From Candidatus Dojkabacteria bacterium (GTDB taxonomy: Bacteria > Patescibacteriota > Dojkabacteria > B142 > JAFGFJ01), in assembly GCA_016931155.1 (NCBI GenBank), contig JAFGFJ010000005.1, forward strand, positions 1,547 to 65,546: DNA of 64,000 nucleotides, in the 5' to 3' direction. This document shows, piece by piece, positions 755-10,377 of the stretch. A program made the position numbers and the translations under genes. Numbering within the stretch: the first letter of the stretch is position 1; each line of letters starts with the position of its first letter. Under the pieces are notes generated by a model. That model was not told the origin of the DNA, searched no databases, and worked only from the letters and a program-made list of their open reading frames with translations.

Positions 755-3700
755 ATGGTCACGAAAGAGATCTTCAAACGAAAACTTCAGAACCTGGTCG
801 AAAGATTTCAGAAATTTGAAATTGAGAACAAAAGATCAATTTATAACGAAACGCTTGCAAGACGTGATTTCATTGATCCGTTTTTTGAAGCTCTTGGCTG
901 GGATATAGACAACAGGAAAGGTCTCTCTTTCGACTCCCGGGAAGTTATACATGAGGATCAGCTTAAAATACAAGGTAAGTTTAAAGCTCCTGACTACTGT
1001 TTCAGAATTGATGGGAGAAGAAAATTCTTTGTGGAGGCAAAGAAACCCTCGATAGATATTAAACGGGGATTCTCAGAGTCGCTTCAGCTCAGACGCTATG
1101 GCTGGAATGGTGAGACTTCTCTTTCTATCCTTACCGATTTTGAGGAACTTGCTATTTATGATACGAGGATTAAACCAAAGCTTTCCGACACTTCCAAAAT
1201 TGCAAGAATTGAATACATAAAATACACAGAATATTTGGATAAATGGGAGCATATTTACGATATTTTCTCGAAAGAAGCAGTCGAAGGCGGGAAATTTGAT
1301 GAATTCATTGGTAAGCCAATTAAAGGAGTACTCAGTGTTGATAAGGACTTTCTCGAAACTATTAGCAATTGGAGAAACTGGTTAGCGAAAGATATTGCTA
1401 CAAATAACAAGAAAATAACCATAGAGAACCTGAACCTTACTGTTCAGAAGCTGATCGATAGAATTATCTTTTTAAGGATTGCAGAAGATAGAGGTTTGGA
1501 AGAATATGGGAATTTGCAAAATTTAATCAAATACAAAGACTCCTACAAAAGACTTGTAGAACATTTTGTGGTAGCTAATAAGAAATACGATAGTAATTTA
1601 TTCGAATTTGAAAGTGGATTGACCCCGAATTTGAAAATATCGGATAAGATTTTGGATAAAATATTAGATGATCTCTACTACCCTACTTCACCGTATGAAT
1701 TTTCTGTAATTGGTGTTGAATTGCTAGGAAAAATTTACGAGCAATTTTTAGGAAAAGTAATCAGGCTAACTTCCTCACACAATGCTGTAGTTGAAGAAAA
1801 ACCTGAGGTTAGAAAAGCTGGAGGCGTATACTACACTCCAAAGTATATTGTCGAATATATTGTCAAAAATACAGTTGGGGAGCTTGTTAAAGGAAAGACT
1901 CCAAAGCAAATTGAAAAAATAAAAATAGTTGATCCAGCGTGTGGTAGTGGAAGCTTTCTTATTGGAGCATATGATTATTTGCTGGATTACCATTTAAATT
2001 ACTATATGAAATCCAATCCTTCACAATACAAAAAGGAAGTTTTTAAAGACTCTTTAGGAAACTGGCTTCTAACTACTTTAGAAAAGAGGAAGATCCTTCT
2101 CAATAATATTTATGGTGTAGATATAGATAGACAGGCAGTTGAGGTGACGAAGCTGAGTTTATCTCTAAAAATGCTTGAAAACGAAAATAGAGAAACGATA
2201 AATCAGCAGCTAAAAATTTTTGCAGAAAGAATTCTTCCAGACCTTGAGGGTAATATCAAGTGTGGGAACTCACTAATTGGGAGTGATTATTGGGATGATA
2301 AGGATTTGAGTAAAGTAACTGAGGAAGAAATAAGAAAGGTAAATTCATTCGATTGGAAAAAAGAGTTTAGTGAAGTGTTTAAGCAAGGAGGGTTTGATGG
2401 GGTGATAGGGAATCCGCCGTATATTAAGATTCAGGGACTACAGGAATTTGCACCTGAACAAGTCTCATACTTGAAAAGTACATATGAGTCAGCCTCTAAA
2501 GGGAATATAGACATCTATGTAATGTTTTTGGAGAAGTCGCTTAAATTGCTCAACAAAACGGGACTTTCTGGCTTTATCTTACCACATAAATTCTTCCAAG
2601 CAGATTTCGGGTCTATGGTCAGGAGAATCATAAGTACAGGAAAATCTGTTAGAAAAGTACTAAGTTTTAGGGAAAAGCAAGTATTTACAAACGCAACTAC
2701 ATATACCTGCTTGTTATTTTTATCTGGAAGGCAGAATAAAGTCTTCAATTATTCACAAATACGAGAAAATCAAGACCCCGAAGGGTATCTTAAAAATGTA
2801 AAATTTAATAAATTGACAAGTGATCAACTGGATCATGATAAGTGGAATCTTACTAACCTGGAAACAAAATCTGTTTTAGATAAGTTAAATCGAAATACTA
2901 TTACGCTTGGTGACATCACTGAGAAAATTTTTGTTGGTTTACAGACAAGTGCTGATAAAATATACGTCTTAGAGATTTTGGGAGAGGATACAGATAACTA
3001 CAGACTGTTTTCGAAGAGTTTAGGAAGGGAGGAAATTTTAGAAAAAGGTCTTTGTAAGAAATTCCTAATGGGGAAAGAAGTCCACAGATACCAACCCTTG
3101 ACTGCAAAGAACGTTGTTATTTTTCCATATAAGTTAAATAAGAATGAACCTGAACTTATGCCACTAGACTACATACGTTTAAATTTCCCAAAAGGTTATG
3201 AATATATACTAAGAAATAAGGAAGAACTTGAGAGAAGAGAAAAAAGCAAATTCAAAGATAGCTGGTGGTGTTTTGGTAGGCCACAGAACTTACACGACTT
3301 TGATAAGGAGAAAATAGTGATGCCAGATATCTCTGTTAAACCCGAACTCACTTATGATGAGAGCAACTTGTATCATACGACGACAGTTTATAGCGTTCTC
3401 TTCAAGGAAATTAAGGAAGATCCGATCTATGTGCTTGGTGTATTAAATTCAAGCCTTTTTTGGTTCTTTATCAAAAATACTGGAACAGTTTTACGCGGTG
3501 ACTATATACGATTTAAGACAAATTATTTAAAACCATTTCCAATTAGATTAATTAATTTCCATAACAATGAAGAAAAAACAACTCATAACGATATCGTTAA
3601 AATGGTAAGACAAATTCTTAGTCTAAAAAAAGAGTTGATTTCAAATATGTCAAATTTGCAGAAGAAACTTAGTGAGAAGAGGATTGATAACTTGGAGATG

Positions 3701-3775
3701 AAGATCAATCAGGATGTTTATAAATTGTATAAATTAACAGAAACAGAAATAGGTATTATTGAGAAATCATTATGA
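755..3775 (+). CDS. Type IIG restriction-modification enzyme: PD-(D/E)xK endonuclease fused to a gamma-class N6-adenine DNA methyltransferase and a target-recognition region (MmeI/Eco57I-like single chain)
   Basis: N-terminal PD...D...EAK motif (APDYCFRIDGRRKFFVEAKKP). Motif X GGVYYTPKYIVEYIV, SAM-binding motif I DPACGSGSFLIGA, and catalytic motif IV GNPPYIKIQ. Length 1006 aa with a long C-terminal TRD-like region. Confidence 0.85.
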   Translation: MVTKEIFKRKLQNLVERFQKFEIENKRSIYNETLARRDFIDPFFEALGWDIDNRKGLSFDSREVIHEDQLKIQGKFKAPDYCFRIDGRRKFFVEAKKPSIDIKRGFSESLQLRRYGWNGETSLSILTDFEELAIYDTRIKPKLSDTSKIARIEYIKYTEYLDKWEHIYDIFSKEAVEGGKFDEFIGKPIKGVLSVDKDFLETISNWRNWLAKDIATNNKKITIENLNLTVQKLIDRIIFLRIAEDRGLEEYGNLQNLIKYKDSYKRLVEHFVVANKKYDSNLFEFESGLTPNLKISDKILDKILDDLYYPTSPYEFSVIGVELLGKIYEQFLGKVIRLTSSHNAVVEEKPEVRKAGGVYYTPKYIVEYIVKNTVGELVKGKTPKQIEKIKIVDPACGSGSFLIGAYDYLLDYHLNYYMKSNPSQYKKEVFKDSLGNWLLTTLEKRKILLNNIYGVDIDRQAVEVTKLSLSLKMLENENRETINQQLKIFAERILPDLEGNIKCGNSLIGSDYWDDKDLSKVTEEEIRKVNSFDWKKEFSEVFKQGGFDGVIGNPPYIKIQGLQEFAPEQVSYLKSTYESASKGNIDIYVMFLEKSLKLLNKTGLSGFILPHKFFQADFGSMVRRIISTGKSVRKVLSFREKQVFTNATTYTCLLFLSGRQNKVFNYSQIRENQDPEGYLKNVKFNKLTSDQLDHDKWNLTNLETKSVLDKLNRNTITLGDITEKIFVGLQTSADKIYVLEILGEDTDNYRLFSKSLGREEILEKGLCKKFLMGKEVHRYQPLTAKNVVIFPYKLNKNEPELMPLDYIRLNFPKGYEYILRNKEELERREKSKFKDSWWCFGRPQNLHDFDKEKIVMPDISVKPELTYDESNLYHTTTVYSVLFKEIKEDPIYVLGVLNSSLFWFFIKNTGTVLRGDYIRFKTNYLKPFPIRLINFHNNEEKTTHNDIVKMVRQILSLKKELISNMSNLQKKLSEKRIDNLEMKINQDVYKLYKLTETEIGIIEKSL

Positions 3776-4473
3776 AAAACATAAAAGATGTAATAGGAAA
3801 AGGAAGCTCTAAGCTATTACAGAGCCACTTAATACAAAGGATTATCGACTTCGTTTTTTCCTTTAGCATAATGATCGTTGCCTATTTGCTTATTATCAAA
3901 TTGATTCAGCTTTTGACCAAAACTAGCCTTAGTTTTGACGATTCTGATAAACAAAACCTAGTACAAATTGCTTTATTAGCAGGACTGTTTGCGACGGTGA
4001 GAGAAGCAATAGCAAACAGACAAGAAGCAGTCAAACTAAGAGAATCTGAAGAAACACCTATTCTTACCATGCACATCAGGACGGTTGATATAAATGAGCT
4101 TAAAAAACATGGTCTTGATGGTTGGGATTTTTATAATATTGGTGAAAATATTTATAAATATATAGTTATTAGAAACACGGGGAAAGGTACAGCCCTTAAT
4201 CTCAAAGTTAATCCTATTGATAATCGAAACATGGAGTTTGCTGAATTTAAGAATTACGTCATTGCTCCTGGATCGGATGAGGTAGCAATTAAGCTAAAAA
4301 ACAAACCTGTAGATCAGAAAGAACTAAACGGGGTTCAGTATAAAATTGAAACTGAGACTATTTCAGGCAAAAAGTGGTTTTACAGATCAGAGATTAGAGA
4401 TGTAGAAAAAAATTACATTATGTTTGTAAAGATGACGGACAAAGAAGGAGAATTAATGAAAAACAATATCTAA
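3772..4473 (+). CDS. Hypothetical membrane-anchored protein, 233 aa: N-terminal TM helix plus a beta-rich soluble domain, embedded between two restriction genes
   Basis: ATG overlaps the RM gene stop (ATGA). The hydrophobic N-terminal segment is FVFSFSIMIVAYLLIIKLIQLL. No recognisable catalytic motif. Confidence 0.5.
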   Translation: MKNIKDVIGKGSSKLLQSHLIQRIIDFVFSFSIMIVAYLLIIKLIQLLTKTSLSFDDSDKQNLVQIALLAGLFATVREAIANRQEAVKLRESEETPILTMHIRTVDINELKKHGLDGWDFYNIGENIYKYIVIRNTGKGTALNLKVNPIDNRNMEFAEFKNYVIAPGSDEVAIKLKNKPVDQKELNGVQYKIETETISGKKWFYRSEIRDVEKNYIMFVKMTDKEGELMKNNI

Positions 4474-4489
4474 TTATTAAATTATATAA

Positions 4490-5368
4490 ATGTCAAAATC
4501 AAAAGAGGTAGCCATAAAAACTCTCTACAAAGTGTTCGAGATACTCAAAAGGAATAATAATCAACTGCCTGGTAAGGAGGTTCTAGCGCAAATAGAAAAA
4601 GAGGTAGAATTTACCGATTGGGAGAAAGAAAGATATGAGAAAACTGGATATATCAGATGGCAATCGATTATCCATTTTTATACTATAGATGCAATAAAAT
4701 CTGGACACTTATATAAGAAAAATGGCATTTGGTATTTAACTGAAGAGGGGGCAAAAGCTATGAAACTCGGACCAGAGAAGCTTTTCGAAAGTGCAAGGGA
4801 GGGCTATAAGAAATGGGCATCAGAGCGACCTGATGAAGTAGGAAGTGGTGAGCATGAAGATACGAGTCAGAGCCAGAAGGCGAACCTAGAACAACTCGAG
4901 GAGCAAGCATTTTTACAACTTGAAGATTATATTCGTTCATTAAACCCCTATGAATTTCAAGATATTGTAGCCGCTTTATTAAGAGGTATGGGTTACTACA
5001 CACCATTCGTAGCTCCAAGAGGAAAGGATAATGGAATTGATATTATTGCCTACAAAGATCCTATAGGTACGGAGAAACCGATAATAAAAGTTCAAGTAAA
5101 ACATCACCCTGATAGTTCGGTACAGTCTCAGGATATACAAAAACTCAAAGGTACTTTATCGCATGATGAAGAAGTCGGAATCTTTGTAACATCTGGGAAA
5201 TTTTCCTCCGGTGCCATTCGAGAAGCAAGAATGTCAAAATTGCATATAGAGACGATTGATTTTACGAGATTTGTTGAATTATGGAAGCAATTTTACAATA
5301 AGCTTTCTGATGAAGATAAAAATTTATTGCCGTTACATCCAATTTACTTCCTTGGTACGAATGAATAA
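4490..5368 (+). CDS. mrr: Mrr-like Type IV (modification-dependent) restriction endonuclease: Mrr_N winged-helix domain plus Mrr catalytic domain
   Basis: C-terminal Mrr_cat signature: YEFQDIVAALLRGMGY, GKDNGIDIIAY, and IIKVQVKHH (D...QxK), then GIFVTSGKFSSGA. N-terminal wH-like region WQSIIHFYTIDAIKSGHLYKKNGIWYLTEEG. Confidence 0.8.
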   Translation: MSKSKEVAIKTLYKVFEILKRNNNQLPGKEVLAQIEKEVEFTDWEKERYEKTGYIRWQSIIHFYTIDAIKSGHLYKKNGIWYLTEEGAKAMKLGPEKLFESAREGYKKWASERPDEVGSGEHEDTSQSQKANLEQLEEQAFLQLEDYIRSLNPYEFQDIVAALLRGMGYYTPFVAPRGKDNGIDIIAYKDPIGTEKPIIKVQVKHHPDSSVQSQDIQKLKGTLSHDEEVGIFVTSGKFSSGAIREARMSKLHIETIDFTRFVELWKQFYNKLSDEDKNLLPLHPIYFLGTNE

Positions 5369-5504
5369 AACCTTTTAAGGAAAAACTCTAACTAATGAGG
5401 ATATTGAGTATTAACAAAAGATTATTATTGCACTTGTAGAAAAGAAATAGGGGTCAAGTCGCCTACTCCTTCTCTTAACCCCTATGAAGTTTAATAAATT
5501 ATTT

Positions 5505-5804
5505 CTAAATATTTCTTTTTAAACAATCTGGAAGATTTACTAAATTATCTTCTTTTTTGCTATTTGGATCACTTCGTAGATACCACTCATCTGTTTTATC
5601 ATGTGGTATCCATTTGCAATCAACTCTCGTATTATTCTTTATGTTATAACAAATAAATGTATCAGTATTTCTATATACCTGATTACTAAATGATGTTTTA
5701 GATATTATTGTGTATCTATTTGATCCATCGTTGTTGTATCCGTAATGAGTGATCTCACTTTCAAGGTCACCATTTTTGGTTGTTGCTATAATAAAATATT
5801 TCAT
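5505..5804 (-). CDS. Hypothetical small protein, 99 aa
   Basis: ORF only. No signal peptide and no motif recognised. Confidence 0.3.
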   Translation of the reverse strand: MKYFIIATTKNGDLESEITHYGYNNDGSNRYTIISKTSFSNQVYRNTDTFICYNIKNNTRVDCKWIPHDKTDEWYLRSDPNSKKEDNLVNLPDCLKRNI

Positions 5805-6340: not shown

Positions 6341-7141
6341 TTACACCGGCCTCAATGTCCCTGCAAACACCTGCCAGGCAAGGAGGCTTTTGGCAACCAA
6401 GCTCAAAATTATATATACCTTTTCTCCCCATAAATAATCCTTCCACTTCCCTACTCTTCTGTACTGAAGAAACATATTTATCGCAAAGACGTTGAAGAAC
6501 AGGAAAATACTGAAGAATATATAATAAACAAAATCCGGAGCCTTGGATTCACCTTCTCCTGAACCAAAAAGATAAAGTGCTACAACTACCCATGGGACTA
6601 TCCCTGCAAAACATCCCATTATAAATGCTGTCCAGTTGGTCTTTTTCGTTGTCTGGTTGTGAACTTCCATCACCCATCCAAACAGAATCATCGTTGCATT
6701 TAAGCTAAACATCAAAAGCAAAGAACTGAAATCATAAACGCCAACGAGAAGAGCTATTACGACTATCATTACAGATGAGCTGAATGAATATTCAATCCAC
6801 CTTGCATAATTGATCCCTTTTTCTAGATTTCGTTTGTACCATTCATAAATCCCGGGCAGAGAAATTGTAAAATGAGCGATTGCAGAAAGAAATAGAAAAC
6901 CTGCAACAAGATAACCAAGTTTGACCTGTGTTAATTGCTCAACACTTGGGATAAGAGTAAAAGTAGCTTCATCAAGCTTGAGGTAACTGGTGTTTACAGG
7001 AAGCTTAAAATCATTTGTAAGAATGACCATTAAGATGCCTTGAAGGAGATGAAATCCTCCCATAAATAGATTAAAGGTTCGAAGGTTTTTCATGAAGAGT
7101 GCGTAAAATGTATACCATAACTCTAAATGATTATTTTTCAA
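6341..7141 (-). CDS. Heliorhodopsin, a 7-TM retinal protein with inverted topology
   Basis: Strong collinear similarity to heliorhodopsin 48C12 as I recall it: FHLLQG, ANDFKLP, RWIEYSFSSSVMIVVIA (counter-ion Glu), NATMILFGW, GIVPW, FLFFN, and LQYRRVGKWKDYLWGEKVYIILSLVAKSLLAWQVF (Schiff-base Lys in SLVAKS). The true start may be the second Met (MKNLRTF). Confidence 0.85.
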   Translation of the reverse strand: MKNNHLELWYTFYALFMKNLRTFNLFMGGFHLLQGILMVILTNDFKLPVNTSYLKLDEATFTLIPSVEQLTQVKLGYLVAGFLFLSAIAHFTISLPGIYEWYKRNLEKGINYARWIEYSFSSSVMIVVIALLVGVYDFSSLLLMFSLNATMILFGWVMEVHNQTTKKTNWTAFIMGCFAGIVPWVVVALYLFGSGEGESKAPDFVYYIFFSIFLFFNVFAINMFLQYRRVGKWKDYLWGEKVYIILSLVAKSLLAWQVFAGTLRPV

Positions 7142-7502: not shown

Positions 7503-7916
7503 ATGGGTAATGGTTTTGATAATTTTCTTTTCTATGATGACCTCGCTGTACTTGAAATTTTTGAAATTAAATGTTCTGGGGTACATGTAGTAAATGATCC
7601 GGATGAATCAAAAGTACCTGACCGCCCAGATATCCATGAGAATTACAAACCGGAGAAAATGGGCATTTTCACAGCTGCAGATGATAATACAAAAATGTTT
7701 GTGGGTATTACCTGGAGATATGTTGGTGATCCGGAAATTGATTTTGATGCCAAAAAAACTGCTGAACAATTTGCGATTGATAGGTATCATTTATGCAAAA
7801 ATTGTCTTATGAATATTTTGGGGCAATGCTTGGGTCAGAAAGTATCTGTTCACATTGTTGGAGGTATATTATCTATAAGATATACAGCTAGAGTAATAGT
7901 ACTTGATAATAATTAG
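7503..7916 (+). CDS. Hypothetical protein, 137 aa
   Basis: ORF downstream of a promoter/leader/terminator arrangement. No family recognised. Confidence 0.45.
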   Translation: MGNGFDNFLFYDDLAVLEIFEIKCSGVHVVNDPDESKVPDRPDIHENYKPEKMGIFTAADDNTKMFVGITWRYVGDPEIDFDAKKTAEQFAIDRYHLCKNCLMNILGQCLGQKVSVHIVGGILSIRYTARVIVLDNN

Positions 7917-7928
7917 GGTGAAATAGAG

Positions 7929-9386
7929 TTAGTTAATCCACTTTCTTCCGTCTCTTCTTATTAGATCTTCTGCTTCATTAGGTCCCAAGGTGCCTTTTTC
8001 ATAGTTCGGGAAATTGGGCGGCGGCATCCTGTTCCACTCTTTTCTTATGTGATCAACGAATTCCCAGCTTGCCTCAATTTCATCATTTCTAACGAATAAA
8101 GTTGAATCACCTCTTATAATATCCAATATTAATGTTTCATAAGCATCAGGGATTTTTTCTTTAAATTCTTCTCTGTATTTAAGATCGAGGTTTGCAAGCT
8201 CGACCTTTTCCTTACCGGGGGTTTTGTTCAAAAGTTTGATCTCAATTCCCTCATCCGGCTGGATGTTATATGTGAGTGTATTGGCACAGTAGTCAGAGGA
8301 AATGAGAAGGTCTTCATCTCCCTTGAATTTGATAATAATTTTTGTCTGCTTTTCTTTAAGCTTTTTACCTGAACGAATGTATATTGGAACATTCTCCCAT
8401 CTTTCGTTTTCTATAAATAGCTTCATTGCTACGAATGTTTCTACATATGAGGACTTATCTACTCCTTTTTCTTCTCTGTATCCTTTGTACTGCCCTCTTA
8501 CAATATGCTCCCTGATTTCATCTTTTGAATAAAGTCTGAGGGATCGAATAATATCTGCTTTTTCGTTTCTAATGTGCTTCTCATCAAAATACTCAGGTTT
8601 CTCCATGGCAATGTGGGCAACCAGCTGGAGAGCATGATTTTGTATGATATCCCGGAGTGCACCGGCGTTTTCATAATATGTTCCTCTGCTTTCAAGACCT
8701 ATTGATTCGAGAATGGAAATCTGTACATGGTCGATAGACTTTTTGTCCCAGGATGTATCGAATGCCTGGTTTGCAAATCTAAAGAACAGGAGATTTTGAA
8801 CAGTTTCTTTGCCAAGGTAATGGTCGATCCTGTAAATTTGCTCCTCCTTAAATACTTTTTTTAGCTCTTTGTTCAAAATCTCCGCACTTTTAAGATCGTT
8901 TCCAAATGGCTTTTCCACTACAATCCGGGTATTTTTTCCTTCGCAGATACTTCGAAGCTTTGATGACTGTATATTCTGGATGATTGGATAATAGGCTTGA
9001 GCTGGGGTTGCAAGGTATAGAATAATTTCTGCATTGTAGTCAAACTTTTTTAAAAAACCCTCAATTTTTAGTGAAATTTCCTCGAAATCATTCCTTTCTG
9101 CAAAAAATCCCTGGTGATAAAAAATGTTTTTTGTAAATTTTTCCCACAATTTCCCTGTGTTTTTTCCATCTTTTTTTAATTTGGAATATAGACTTTTTCT
9201 ATATTCTGTGTCTGAGAGCGGTTTTCTGGAGAAACCCAGTATTTTGAAATTTTCTGGAAGAAGCTTCTGCCTGTACAAACTGAAAATAGCTGGTAAAAGT
9301 TTTCTGTGAGTCAAATCCCCTGCTCCACCAAAAATTACAAAGAAAACAGGAATGTCATTGATTTTGTTTTTGAGTAGTTCTATCAA
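7929..9386 (-). CDS. zwf: Glucose-6-phosphate 1-dehydrogenase
   Basis: N-terminal NADP-binding motif IFGGAGDLTHRKLLPAIF. Active-site signature RIDHYLGKE. Length 485 aa. Confidence 0.9.
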   Translation of the reverse strand: MIELLKNKINDIPVFFVIFGGAGDLTHRKLLPAIFSLYRQKLLPENFKILGFSRKPLSDTEYRKSLYSKLKKDGKNTGKLWEKFTKNIFYHQGFFAERNDFEEISLKIEGFLKKFDYNAEIILYLATPAQAYYPIIQNIQSSKLRSICEGKNTRIVVEKPFGNDLKSAEILNKELKKVFKEEQIYRIDHYLGKETVQNLLFFRFANQAFDTSWDKKSIDHVQISILESIGLESRGTYYENAGALRDIIQNHALQLVAHIAMEKPEYFDEKHIRNEKADIIRSLRLYSKDEIREHIVRGQYKGYREEKGVDKSSYVETFVAMKLFIENERWENVPIYIRSGKKLKEKQTKIIIKFKGDEDLLISSDYCANTLTYNIQPDEGIEIKLLNKTPGKEKVELANLDLKYREEFKEKIPDAYETLILDIIRGDSTLFVRNDEIEASWEFVDHIRKEWNRMPPPNFPNYEKGTLGPNEAEDLIRRDGRKWIN

Positions 9387-9456: not shown

Positions 9457-10377
9457 ATGTTTATGATGAAAATTGGCTTTGCAGGTCTCGGTAAAATGGG
9501 AAAAAACATGGCTTTGGCTTTAATGAGAAATGGTATCGAGGTCGTCGGGTATAATCGTTCTTCTGAGGTCACAAAAATGCTTATTAATAAAGGTATTATC
9601 CCTTCTTATTCTCTTGAAGAGCTTGTTTGCAAACTTGGAACAAACAGAAAAATTGTTTGGGTTATGGTATCCGAAGGAAAGCCCGTTAAAGAAGTTCTTT
9701 TTAATGAAAAAACCGGCCTGATAAATTTTCTTGAAAAGGGAGATATCGTGGTTGATGGGGGAAATTCTTTCTATGAAGACAGTATTGAAAATGCCGGGAA
9801 ACTCTCTGAAAAAGGAATTGTAATGCTCGATTGCGGTACCAGCGGTGGTCCCAAGGGGGCTTTAAACGGGCTTTCCTTAATGATAGGAGGAAGTAAAACA
9901 GCCTATAGCGAGCTCAAAGAGCTATGGGAGTCCCTGGCAGTAGAGGGTGGATATGGTCATGTTGGAGGAAGTGGTGCCGGTCACTTCGTCAAAATGGTTC
10001 ACAATGCTATCGAATATGGTTTCATGGAGGCTTTAGGTGAGGGTTTTGGTCTGCTGAAAGAATACAACGAAAAACTCGATCTTGAAAAAATAGCAAATAT
10101 CTGGTCAAACGGAAGCGTGATTGAGTCGAAACTTGTAAGACTTGCCGCTCTTGCCCTCTCGGATGAATCAAGTATATCTGAGCTGGATGCATATATTGAT
10201 GACAACAAAGAGGTTCGCTGGGCCCTTAAGGAAGCTATTACAAAAGAAATACCAATGACCGCTATAGCCTATTCACTTTTTGCACGCTACGACTCAAGAG
10301 GAAGAGATGCATTCGGTAAAAAACTGATTGCTGCCCTCCGAAAGGAATTTGGTGGTCACTCAGTTAGAAAACGATGA
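9457..10377 (+). CDS. gnd: 6-phosphogluconate dehydrogenase, short form (Gnd/YqeC-like)
   Basis: Rossmann motif GFAGLGKMGKNMALAL, plus the GGSGAGHFVKMVHNAIEYG 6PGDH core. Divergent from zwf. The start may be Met-4 (MKIGF). Confidence 0.85.
   Translation: MFMMKIGFAGLGKMGKNMALALMRNGIEVVGYNRSSEVTKMLINKGIIPSYSLEELVCKLGTNRKIVWVMVSEGKPVKEVLFNEKTGLINFLEKGDIVVDGGNSFYEDSIENAGKLSEKGIVMLDCGTSGGPKGALNGLSLMIGGSKTAYSELKELWESLAVEGGYGHVGGSGAGHFVKMVHNAIEYGFMEALGEGFGLLKEYNEKLDLEKIANIWSNGSVIESKLVRLAALALSDESSISELDAYIDDNKEVRWALKEAITKEIPMTAIAYSLFARYDSRGRDAFGKKLIAALRKEFGGHSVRKR

Follow-up and report, generated by a model that had tools for sequence, protein, structure and literature searches.

A conserved family of predicted membrane proteins in restriction-modification operons of uncultured bacteria, mainly Patescibacteria, with a possible accessory role in defence

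A 64,000-nucleotide stretch of a metagenome-assembled contig from Candidatus Dojkabacteria (candidate phyla radiation (CPR)/Patescibacteria), hereafter the window, carries three co-directional genes at positions 755-5368 in a mechanical listing of open reading frames (ORFs), namely a gene for a Type IIG restriction-modification (RM) enzyme, a gene for a 233-aa protein that the source annotation calls 'hypothetical protein JW796_01165' and that is referred to here as X, and a gene for an Mrr-type nuclease. X represents a real, conserved and previously undescribed protein family, and the genomic link of this family is to RM operons in general, not to this particular enzyme or to Mrr. We favour, tentatively and at slightly less than even confidence, the view that RM operons and defence islands house X as an autonomous accessory module, which may provide a second, membrane-based line of defence. 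The features of the block are as follows:

755..3775, + strand: Type IIG restriction-modification enzyme gene, 1006 aa (PADLOC, Pfam, motifs)
3772..3775, + strand: ATGA overlap of the Type IIG stop and the X start (ATG 3772-3774, TGA 3773-3775; read off the sequence)
3772..4473, + strand: X gene, 233 aa (exhaustive phmmer family, alignments, AlphaFold2 model)
3838..3909, + strand: first predicted transmembrane segment of X (TM1), residues 23-46 (hydropathy; within model helix 14-49; poorly conserved)
3955..4011, + strand: second predicted transmembrane segment of X (TM2), residues 62-80 (hydropathy; ends in WE[TA]xxxR; best-conserved segment)
4057..4437, + strand: predicted beta-sandwich of X, residues 96-222 (motifs PIL.L.IR, RNxGKGxAxN, APxxDE; AlphaFold2 model)
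4490..5368, + strand: Mrr-type (Type IV-like) endonuclease gene, 292 aa (Pfam, PADLOC, motif)

An earlier note on this DNA had described the three ORFs and the ATGA that X shares with the RM stop, and both observations agree with the ORF listing and with the sequence at 3772-3775. The X gene is separated from the Mrr-type gene by 16 nt. Promoter-like sites within the block show no excess over shuffled expectation, and terminator-like sites on the + strand are few within the block, number 0 at the gene junctions and show no informative excess over shuffled expectation either. As there is neither a promoter-like excess nor a terminator-like site at a junction, a single operon is the simplest reading, in which the three genes would be co-transcribed, and the overlap suggests that translation of X is coupled to that of the Type IIG gene through the ATGA.

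The family was assembled by an exhaustive HMMER (phmmer) scan of 1.84 billion representative sequences at E<=1e-3, which returned 36 matches including X itself (~35 relatives; 10/36 at E<=1e-10), and further relatives were added by profile search; a word-indexed protein search with X retrieved nothing beyond X itself. An alignment of 48 sequences was used for modelling and for hydropathy and domain scans. Residues P96, N135 and G137 are invariant in alignment A2, while R134, G139, A141 and E170 are near-invariant in the X alignments, and the family is marked by four motifs, namely WE[TA]xxxR, which closes the second hydrophobic helix, E.E..PIL.L.IR, RNxGKGxAxN (134-143) and APxxDE (165-170). 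No member of the family scores above threshold against Pfam, NCBIfam, PADLOC, PHROGs or PDB sequences, in line with the earlier statement that the protein has no recognisable family. The only recurrent weak profile matches among the 48 members, all below cut-off, are DUF7619 (7/48, best E 1.2e-3) and TRAP_beta (6/48), which are both immunoglobulin (Ig)-like families; a match to Permuted_GreAB-C (E 1.4e-3) occurs in 1/48 members only and was dismissed as chance. Members are found mainly in metagenome-assembled genomes (MAGs) of Patescibacteria (Paceibacterota, Spechtbacterales, Dojkabacteria), with remoter relatives in Aminicenantes, Acidobacteria and one deltaproteobacterial MAG, and one in an archaeal-looking context. 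The deltaproteobacterial locus (L053) holds two tandem divergent X-like paralogues (7857-8555 and 8589-9200). A 500-aa protein (P0124, L009 265-1767) carries a membrane/helical N-terminal region of ~300 residues, which has no assigned family, fused to a complete X module.

For the genomic context, ORFs were called at the loci of X, members were found by hidden Markov model, and neighbours were clustered and annotated with Pfam and PADLOC, some of the loci being found via the subfamily alignment A3. Contexts were counted over 25 non-redundant strong members, with genes within three genes of X taken as proximal. RM genes lie within that distance in 10 of the 25 loci, in at least 8 independent arrangements, so that the recurrence of X homologues beside RM genes in other genomes, a question raised in the earlier note, is found, and no housekeeping homologue came to light in these searches. 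The gene orders are:

Window: Type IIG, X, Mrr
L015: BcgI-like R-M, Bro-N, X, specificity gene (S)
L046: R-M (BcgI-like), AlbA_2/HATPase_c_4, X, S
L021: AlbA_2, X, S (Type I)
L020: HsdM, AlbA_2, X, S (Type I)
L023: Eco57I+TaqI_C gene, X 6 nt downstream
L027: X, HsdM
L028: Type III Res, Mod, X
L047: C5 methyltransferase (MTase), BpuJI, C5 MTase, winged helix-turn-helix (wHTH), X
L014: integrase ... X, KilA-N, HinfI, two MTases, then a CBASS-like pair (CBASS, cyclic-oligonucleotide-based antiphage signalling system)

Outside this set of 10/25, a distant member lies downstream of an HsdR gene at L031, and a further one adjoins an AlbA_2 gene at L043. Taken together, X lies within or is directly coupled to RM operons in the window and at L014, L015, L020, L021, L023, L027, L028, L031, L046, L047 and L049, and in several loci it stands between the M and S genes. 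Its RM partners comprise Type I, BcgI-like, Type IIG and Type III systems as well as BpuJI and HinfI (IIP/IIS). L049, likewise outside the set, retains (1249-1476) only ~80 N-terminal residues of X, placed between a BcgI-like R-M gene and its S gene, apparently a decay remnant in the same slot that X occupies in L015 and L046. The only other Type IIG-like (Eco57I+TaqI_C) partner of X is that at L023, and none of the other X loci has an Mrr gene, so that a specific action of X with Mrr is not supported.

Defence genes other than RM also neighbour X, namely AbiEi/AbiEii (L048), DUF4297-HerA (L025), SoFic (L004) and DUF4365/DUF559 (L016), and PemK together with KilA-N is found near X in L005-L008. 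Toxin-antitoxin genes and recombinases are present in some loci, with integrases or serine recombinases near X in L014, L022, L028 and L047. L014 (7747-12330) is an integrase island in which a HinfI-type RM system with two methyltransferases is followed by a SMODS/AGS_C cyclase and a 1TM effector. Genes with DNA-binding domains adjoin X in L005-L008, L014, L015, L020, L021, L043, L046, L047 and L048, these being KilA-N, Bro-N, Schlafen AlbA_2 (with or without HATPase_c_4), wHTH and AbiEi. The pair of X and KilA-N is kept in two different islands, the KilA-N proteins being 66% identical, and X may form a two-gene module with a DNA-binding gene.

The AlphaFold2 (AF2) model of X built on the 48-sequence alignment has a mean predicted local distance difference test (pLDDT) score of 89.4 and a predicted template modelling (pTM) score of 0.76, and thus supplies a high-confidence predicted structure of the kind that the earlier note had called for; the model made from the single sequence was poor (pLDDT 60) and its Foldseek matches were set aside. 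In the alignment-based model, helices at residues 14-49 and 57-93 are followed by a beta-sandwich at 98-222. The beta-rich domain described earlier is therefore present in the model; in place of the one N-terminal transmembrane (TM) helix described with it there are two hydrophobic helices, at ~23-46 and 62-80. The hydropathy scan finds two hydrophobic segments in 34/48 members. The N-termini of these two-segment members hold 102 K/R against 26 D/E, and the loop between the helices is net acidic; single-segment variants keep TM2 with its positive flank and have a very short N-terminus. By the positive-inside rule, this charge distribution places the sandwich in the cytoplasm, and X is accordingly predicted to be a membrane hairpin with its N-terminus inside the cell and its sandwich facing the cytoplasm. 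Conservation is higher in TM2 than in TM1, both across the family (0.53 vs 0.30) and in subfamily A3 (0.81 vs 0.43), and as TM2 is the most conserved segment of X it can be argued that it is not a passive anchor. Foldseek comparison of the model with the PDB gave nothing below E=1e-3; the best matches (best E 7e-3) are archaellins and archaeal pilins (helix plus Ig domain), adaptin-ear/GAE, MSP and RhoGDI, which points to a generic Ig-like sandwich.

Taking the gene order, the family, the modelled fold and the recurrent RM and defence context of X as the starting point, the following course of events can be proposed. The Type IIG enzyme would cut unmodified DNA and methylate host DNA, the Mrr-type nuclease would be expected to cut modified DNA, and X, co-expressed with the RM genes by translational coupling, would sense a cue of infection through its cytoplasmic sandwich. 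The conserved TM2 would then drive an assembly process by which the membrane is perturbed or infection is halted, in the manner of abortive infection; a hairpin with a conserved TM2 and a cytoplasmic beta domain makes membrane perturbation or exclusion the most likely mode of action, and both the defence role and the membrane mechanism are inferred. That X would be autonomous rather than an enzyme subunit is suggested by the several types of its RM partners and by ~9 loci with adequate flanks in which no RM gene lies within three genes of X. There are precedents for defence genes housed in RM loci, such as PrrC in a Type IC locus, described along with the 'guardian' concept, and PARIS, which is also RM-embedded (PMC12707154), and TgvAB, carried within a Type I system of Vibrio (PMC11411939). 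The guilt-by-embedding approach has yielded thousands of embedded families (Payne et al. 2024; bioRxiv 10.1101/2024.01.29.577857). The pattern seen for X fits that of the embedded genes of RM and defence operons, and an autonomous embedded accessory module is favoured for this reason.

Several points weigh against this reading. The function assigned to X is deduced from its context and a model, its topology is read from the positive-inside rule, and the second helix is only moderately hydrophobic in the subfamily of the window. The fold is a generic Ig-like sandwich, in which Foldseek brings out no enzymatic or ligand-binding signature, and known effectors show no homology to X in PADLOC or in an hhalign comparison with the CBASS 1TM effector. 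The excess of RM genes near X speaks for the reading, since they make up ~19/99 proximal against 1/35 distal genes in our own tally (Pfam, PADLOC, jackhmmer; Fisher p=0.025) and the 10/25 loci yield a binomial p=1.6e-7, but the distal control of 35 genes is small and itself situated within defence islands, and the background of 5% behind the binomial value is assumed, not measured. No defence genes are seen at L011/L012 (an archaeal-like housekeeping context), L013 or L009. Moreover, the sample comes from metagenomes, many of the contigs are short (six of them too short to judge), and L015, L046 and L021 share ancestry.

A more specific proposal, which we regard as quite unlikely as it stands, is that X founds a new RM-embedded family of membrane effectors centred on CPR/Patescibacteria, in which TM2 (WYAWET[RK]) would form an oligomeric membrane lesion once the cytoplasmic Ig-like domain detects a phage cue or a loss of RM function, the variable gene for a DNA-binding protein next to X (AlbA_2, KilA-N, Bro-N or wHTH, and in the window Mrr) being a possible sensor or partner. 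If this were true, X would be a membrane-acting counterpart of PrrC that guards the restriction systems of ultra-small bacteria, whose immunity is poorly understood.

The first of the alternatives holds that X works physically with the RM enzyme, either as a membrane tether at the site of DNA entry or as a PrrC-like guardian that the RM complex keeps inactive and that is freed when the enzyme is inhibited by a phage anti-restriction protein. The ATGA coupling would suit such a partnership, as would the fact that in at least 8 loci X immediately follows, or is enclosed by, methyltransferase and specificity genes, and Ig-like sandwiches are commonly protein-binding modules. PrrC is in addition a precedent for an RM-embedded effector under the control of the enzyme (PMC12707154). 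An obligate partner should, however, co-occur and co-vary with one enzyme family, whereas the partners of X vary (HsdM, BcgI-like, Type IIG, Type III Mod, C5 MTases with BpuJI, and HinfI), the ~9 adequately flanked loci do without a proximal RM gene, and the closest relatives of the window's Type IIG enzyme do not have X. In a second Dojkabacteria genome (L001), a 211-aa protein with two TM segments and a helical part overlaps the Type IIG stop (9465-10100), and in L002 a 182-aa protein overlaps the stop codon (5166-5714); both were compared with X and are unrelated to it, and the N-terminal extension of P0124 was likewise compared with the L001 protein and found to be unrelated. A third close relative (the P0008 loci) has no gene in the stop-overlapping slot, and four relatives (P0044, P0048, P0058 and P0097) carry a C-terminal Fic fusion; that some relatives within this Type IIG clade have a Fic fusion or another 2-TM protein in the same slot speaks for the favoured reading. 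As close relatives carry unrelated genes or none, the slot is variable and X is not a fixed partner. The earlier suggestion that X acts together with the RM enzyme, if taken as a specific partnership with this Type IIG protein, is thus not supported, and a physical partnership with RM enzymes seems unlikely to us.

The second alternative is that X has no role in defence and is a lineage-specific membrane or envelope protein of the CPR type, pilin-like or exposed at the surface, which gathers with RM genes in variable regions. Archaellins and archaeal type IV pilins, the best structural matches in the PDB (E 7e-3 to 6e-2), share with X an N-terminal hydrophobic helix and an Ig-like sandwich, and the RNxGKGxAxN region weakly matches short CARDB-like repeats in giant surface proteins (P0133, P0141, P0144, P0153); some X loci are housekeeping contexts, and L009 has a faint T4SS_pilin neighbour. 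Class III signal peptides are short leaders, seemingly unlike the long K-rich N-terminus of X, X has two helices in place of one, and the positive-inside rule argues for a cytoplasmic domain. An archaellin or type IV pilin was rejected on these grounds, on the absence of pilus genes, including those for pilus assembly, from the 25 loci, and on the weakness of the matches themselves (E>=7e-3, TM-score ~0.3). Chance would hardly account for the coupling of X within RM operons of several unrelated arrangements, and we therefore consider an envelope protein outside defence to be improbable.

The third alternative, that X is an exclusion protein of mobile elements that blocks DNA entry (superinfection or entry exclusion) without cell death, the RM genes being fellow cargo, agrees with the class as a small membrane protein, with the integrases or serine recombinases listed above, with the KilA-N or Bro-N genes adjoining X in L005-L008, L014 and L015, and with four uncharacterised viral proteins of 160-260 aa in BFVD that share the overall fold of X (E 4e-6 to 3e-4), yet it is very doubtful, as no homologue of X was found by sequence in IMG/VR viral contigs, GenBank phages or PLSDB plasmids, the surroundings of X showed neither conjugation genes nor structural genes of prophages, and a globular domain in the cytoplasm would be unexpected in a protein that blocks entry from outside.

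The genes on either side of X in the window are ordinary members of known families as judged from profiles and motifs. The Type IIG protein matches the PADLOC model REase_MTase_IIG (PDLC03604) along its entire length (854 bits, residues 8-998), and, like that family (Eco57I/TaqI_C-type), it has all the nuclease and methyltransferase motifs. These comprise an N-terminal PD-(D/E)xK nuclease domain (Pfam HSDR_N 4.5e-9; PD79-80...E94-A-K96) with motif residues D80/E94/K96, a gamma-class N6-adenine MTase (VDPACGSG 392-399, NPPY 553-556; Pfam Eco57I 3.5e-42, N6_Mtase) and a C-terminal target recognition domain (TRD; Pfam TaqI_C 3.1e-15). The full-length match and the located motifs bear out the single-chain Type IIG enzyme with PD-ExK and NPPY that had been recognised before. 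The label 'MmeI-like' attached to it holds for the architecture, but the MmeI subfamily was rejected, since MmeI_TRD scores 14.6 bits, below the cut-off of 27. MmeI_Mtase (64.6 bits) is the sole MmeI profile that passes, and among solved sequences CamA and M.BseCI come nearest, MmeI being missing from the PDB sequence matches. The clade is very large, with thousands of relatives at ~50% identity across phyla.

The Mrr-type protein shares with the Mrr family of Type IV endonucleases the architecture of an Mrr_N winged helix (4e-8, 33.7 bits) and an Mrr_cat domain (Pfam, 7.9e-24, 84 bits), as well as the D...QxK motif, here D180/D184...Q202-V-K204. Its best PADLOC match is the candidate PDC-S02 (148 bits, 9e-44), while the match to mREase_IV is weak (28 bits, 3e-7); compared with the curated mREase_IV, it is far closer to the uncharacterised PDC-S02, and its dependence on DNA modification is assumed. 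The identification as an Mrr-like Type IV endonuclease is in keeping with these domains, the PDC-S02 match and the D...QVK motif. The evidence supports a combined Type IIG and Mrr restriction block, for which 'layered defence' would be a reasonable but generic label.

The boundaries of an island are not definable around this block, as its content of guanine and cytosine (0.344) differs little from the window's 0.359, and no att-like repeats flanking the three genes were found. The block is bordered by a DUF5674 gene on one side (156-500, - strand, Pfam) and by a DUF3892 gene on the other (5505-5804, - strand, Pfam). At 578-623, ~130 nt before the Type IIG gene begins, there is a GT-rich tandem repeat with a period of 10 (4.6 copies) or 15 (2.3 copies, 100% match), which could influence expression or phase variation of the RM operon. 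Further along, a heliorhodopsin gene (6341-7141, - strand, Pfam 9.5e-105) is found near an ORF of 485 aa (7929-9386, - strand) that by eye resembles glucose-6-phosphate dehydrogenase.

In CPR/Patescibacteria, few defence genes are known beyond RM systems, and none is open to testing in its native host. X offers a concrete candidate for phage-defence assays in heterologous hosts, given its confident fold model, its conserved motifs and its presence in RM operons of at least five types; the weight it can be given is limited in that thousands of embedded candidates exist and its mechanism is proposed only. If X were active, guilt-by-embedding would be seen to work in lineages known from metagenomes only, and if it were inactive, embedding alone would be seen to mislead. 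The new element is the protein family of X, while the category of defence candidates embedded in RM operons is known.

Among known membrane effectors, the Cap15 or S-2TM-beta effectors of CBASS are similar to X in size and likewise belong to a defence context; in them a pair of N-terminal TM helices precedes a small all-beta domain in the cytoplasm. X, whose all-beta domain is C-terminal, shares this Cap15-type layout in architecture only, as seen by hydropathy and AF2, and its domain is modelled as an Ig-like sandwich and not as a minimal beta-barrel. Homology of X to Cap15 or other CBASS effectors was rejected, as there is no match to a PADLOC effector and hhalign against the L014 CBASS 1TM effector gives a probability of 0.6%; a cyclase occurs near X, loosely, only in L014, and that cyclase has an effector of its own. 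Comparable in genomic setting are PrrC/RloC, TgvAB and the candidates of Payne et al.: like them, X is small, co-directional, placed in or after RM genes and often translationally coupled, and like them it recurs across unrelated RM systems. No homology of X to the embedded effectors (PrrC, RloC, TgvAB, HEC and PDC models) appears as a PADLOC, Pfam or NCBIfam match. While PrrC combines an ATPase and an anticodon nuclease in a soluble protein and the TgvAB nucleases are GmrSD-like, X is predicted to lie in the membrane, has an Ig-like domain and carries neither a nuclease nor an NTPase motif; should it prove active, a membrane-acting class would join the short list of RM-embedded effectors, which have so far been mainly soluble nucleases.

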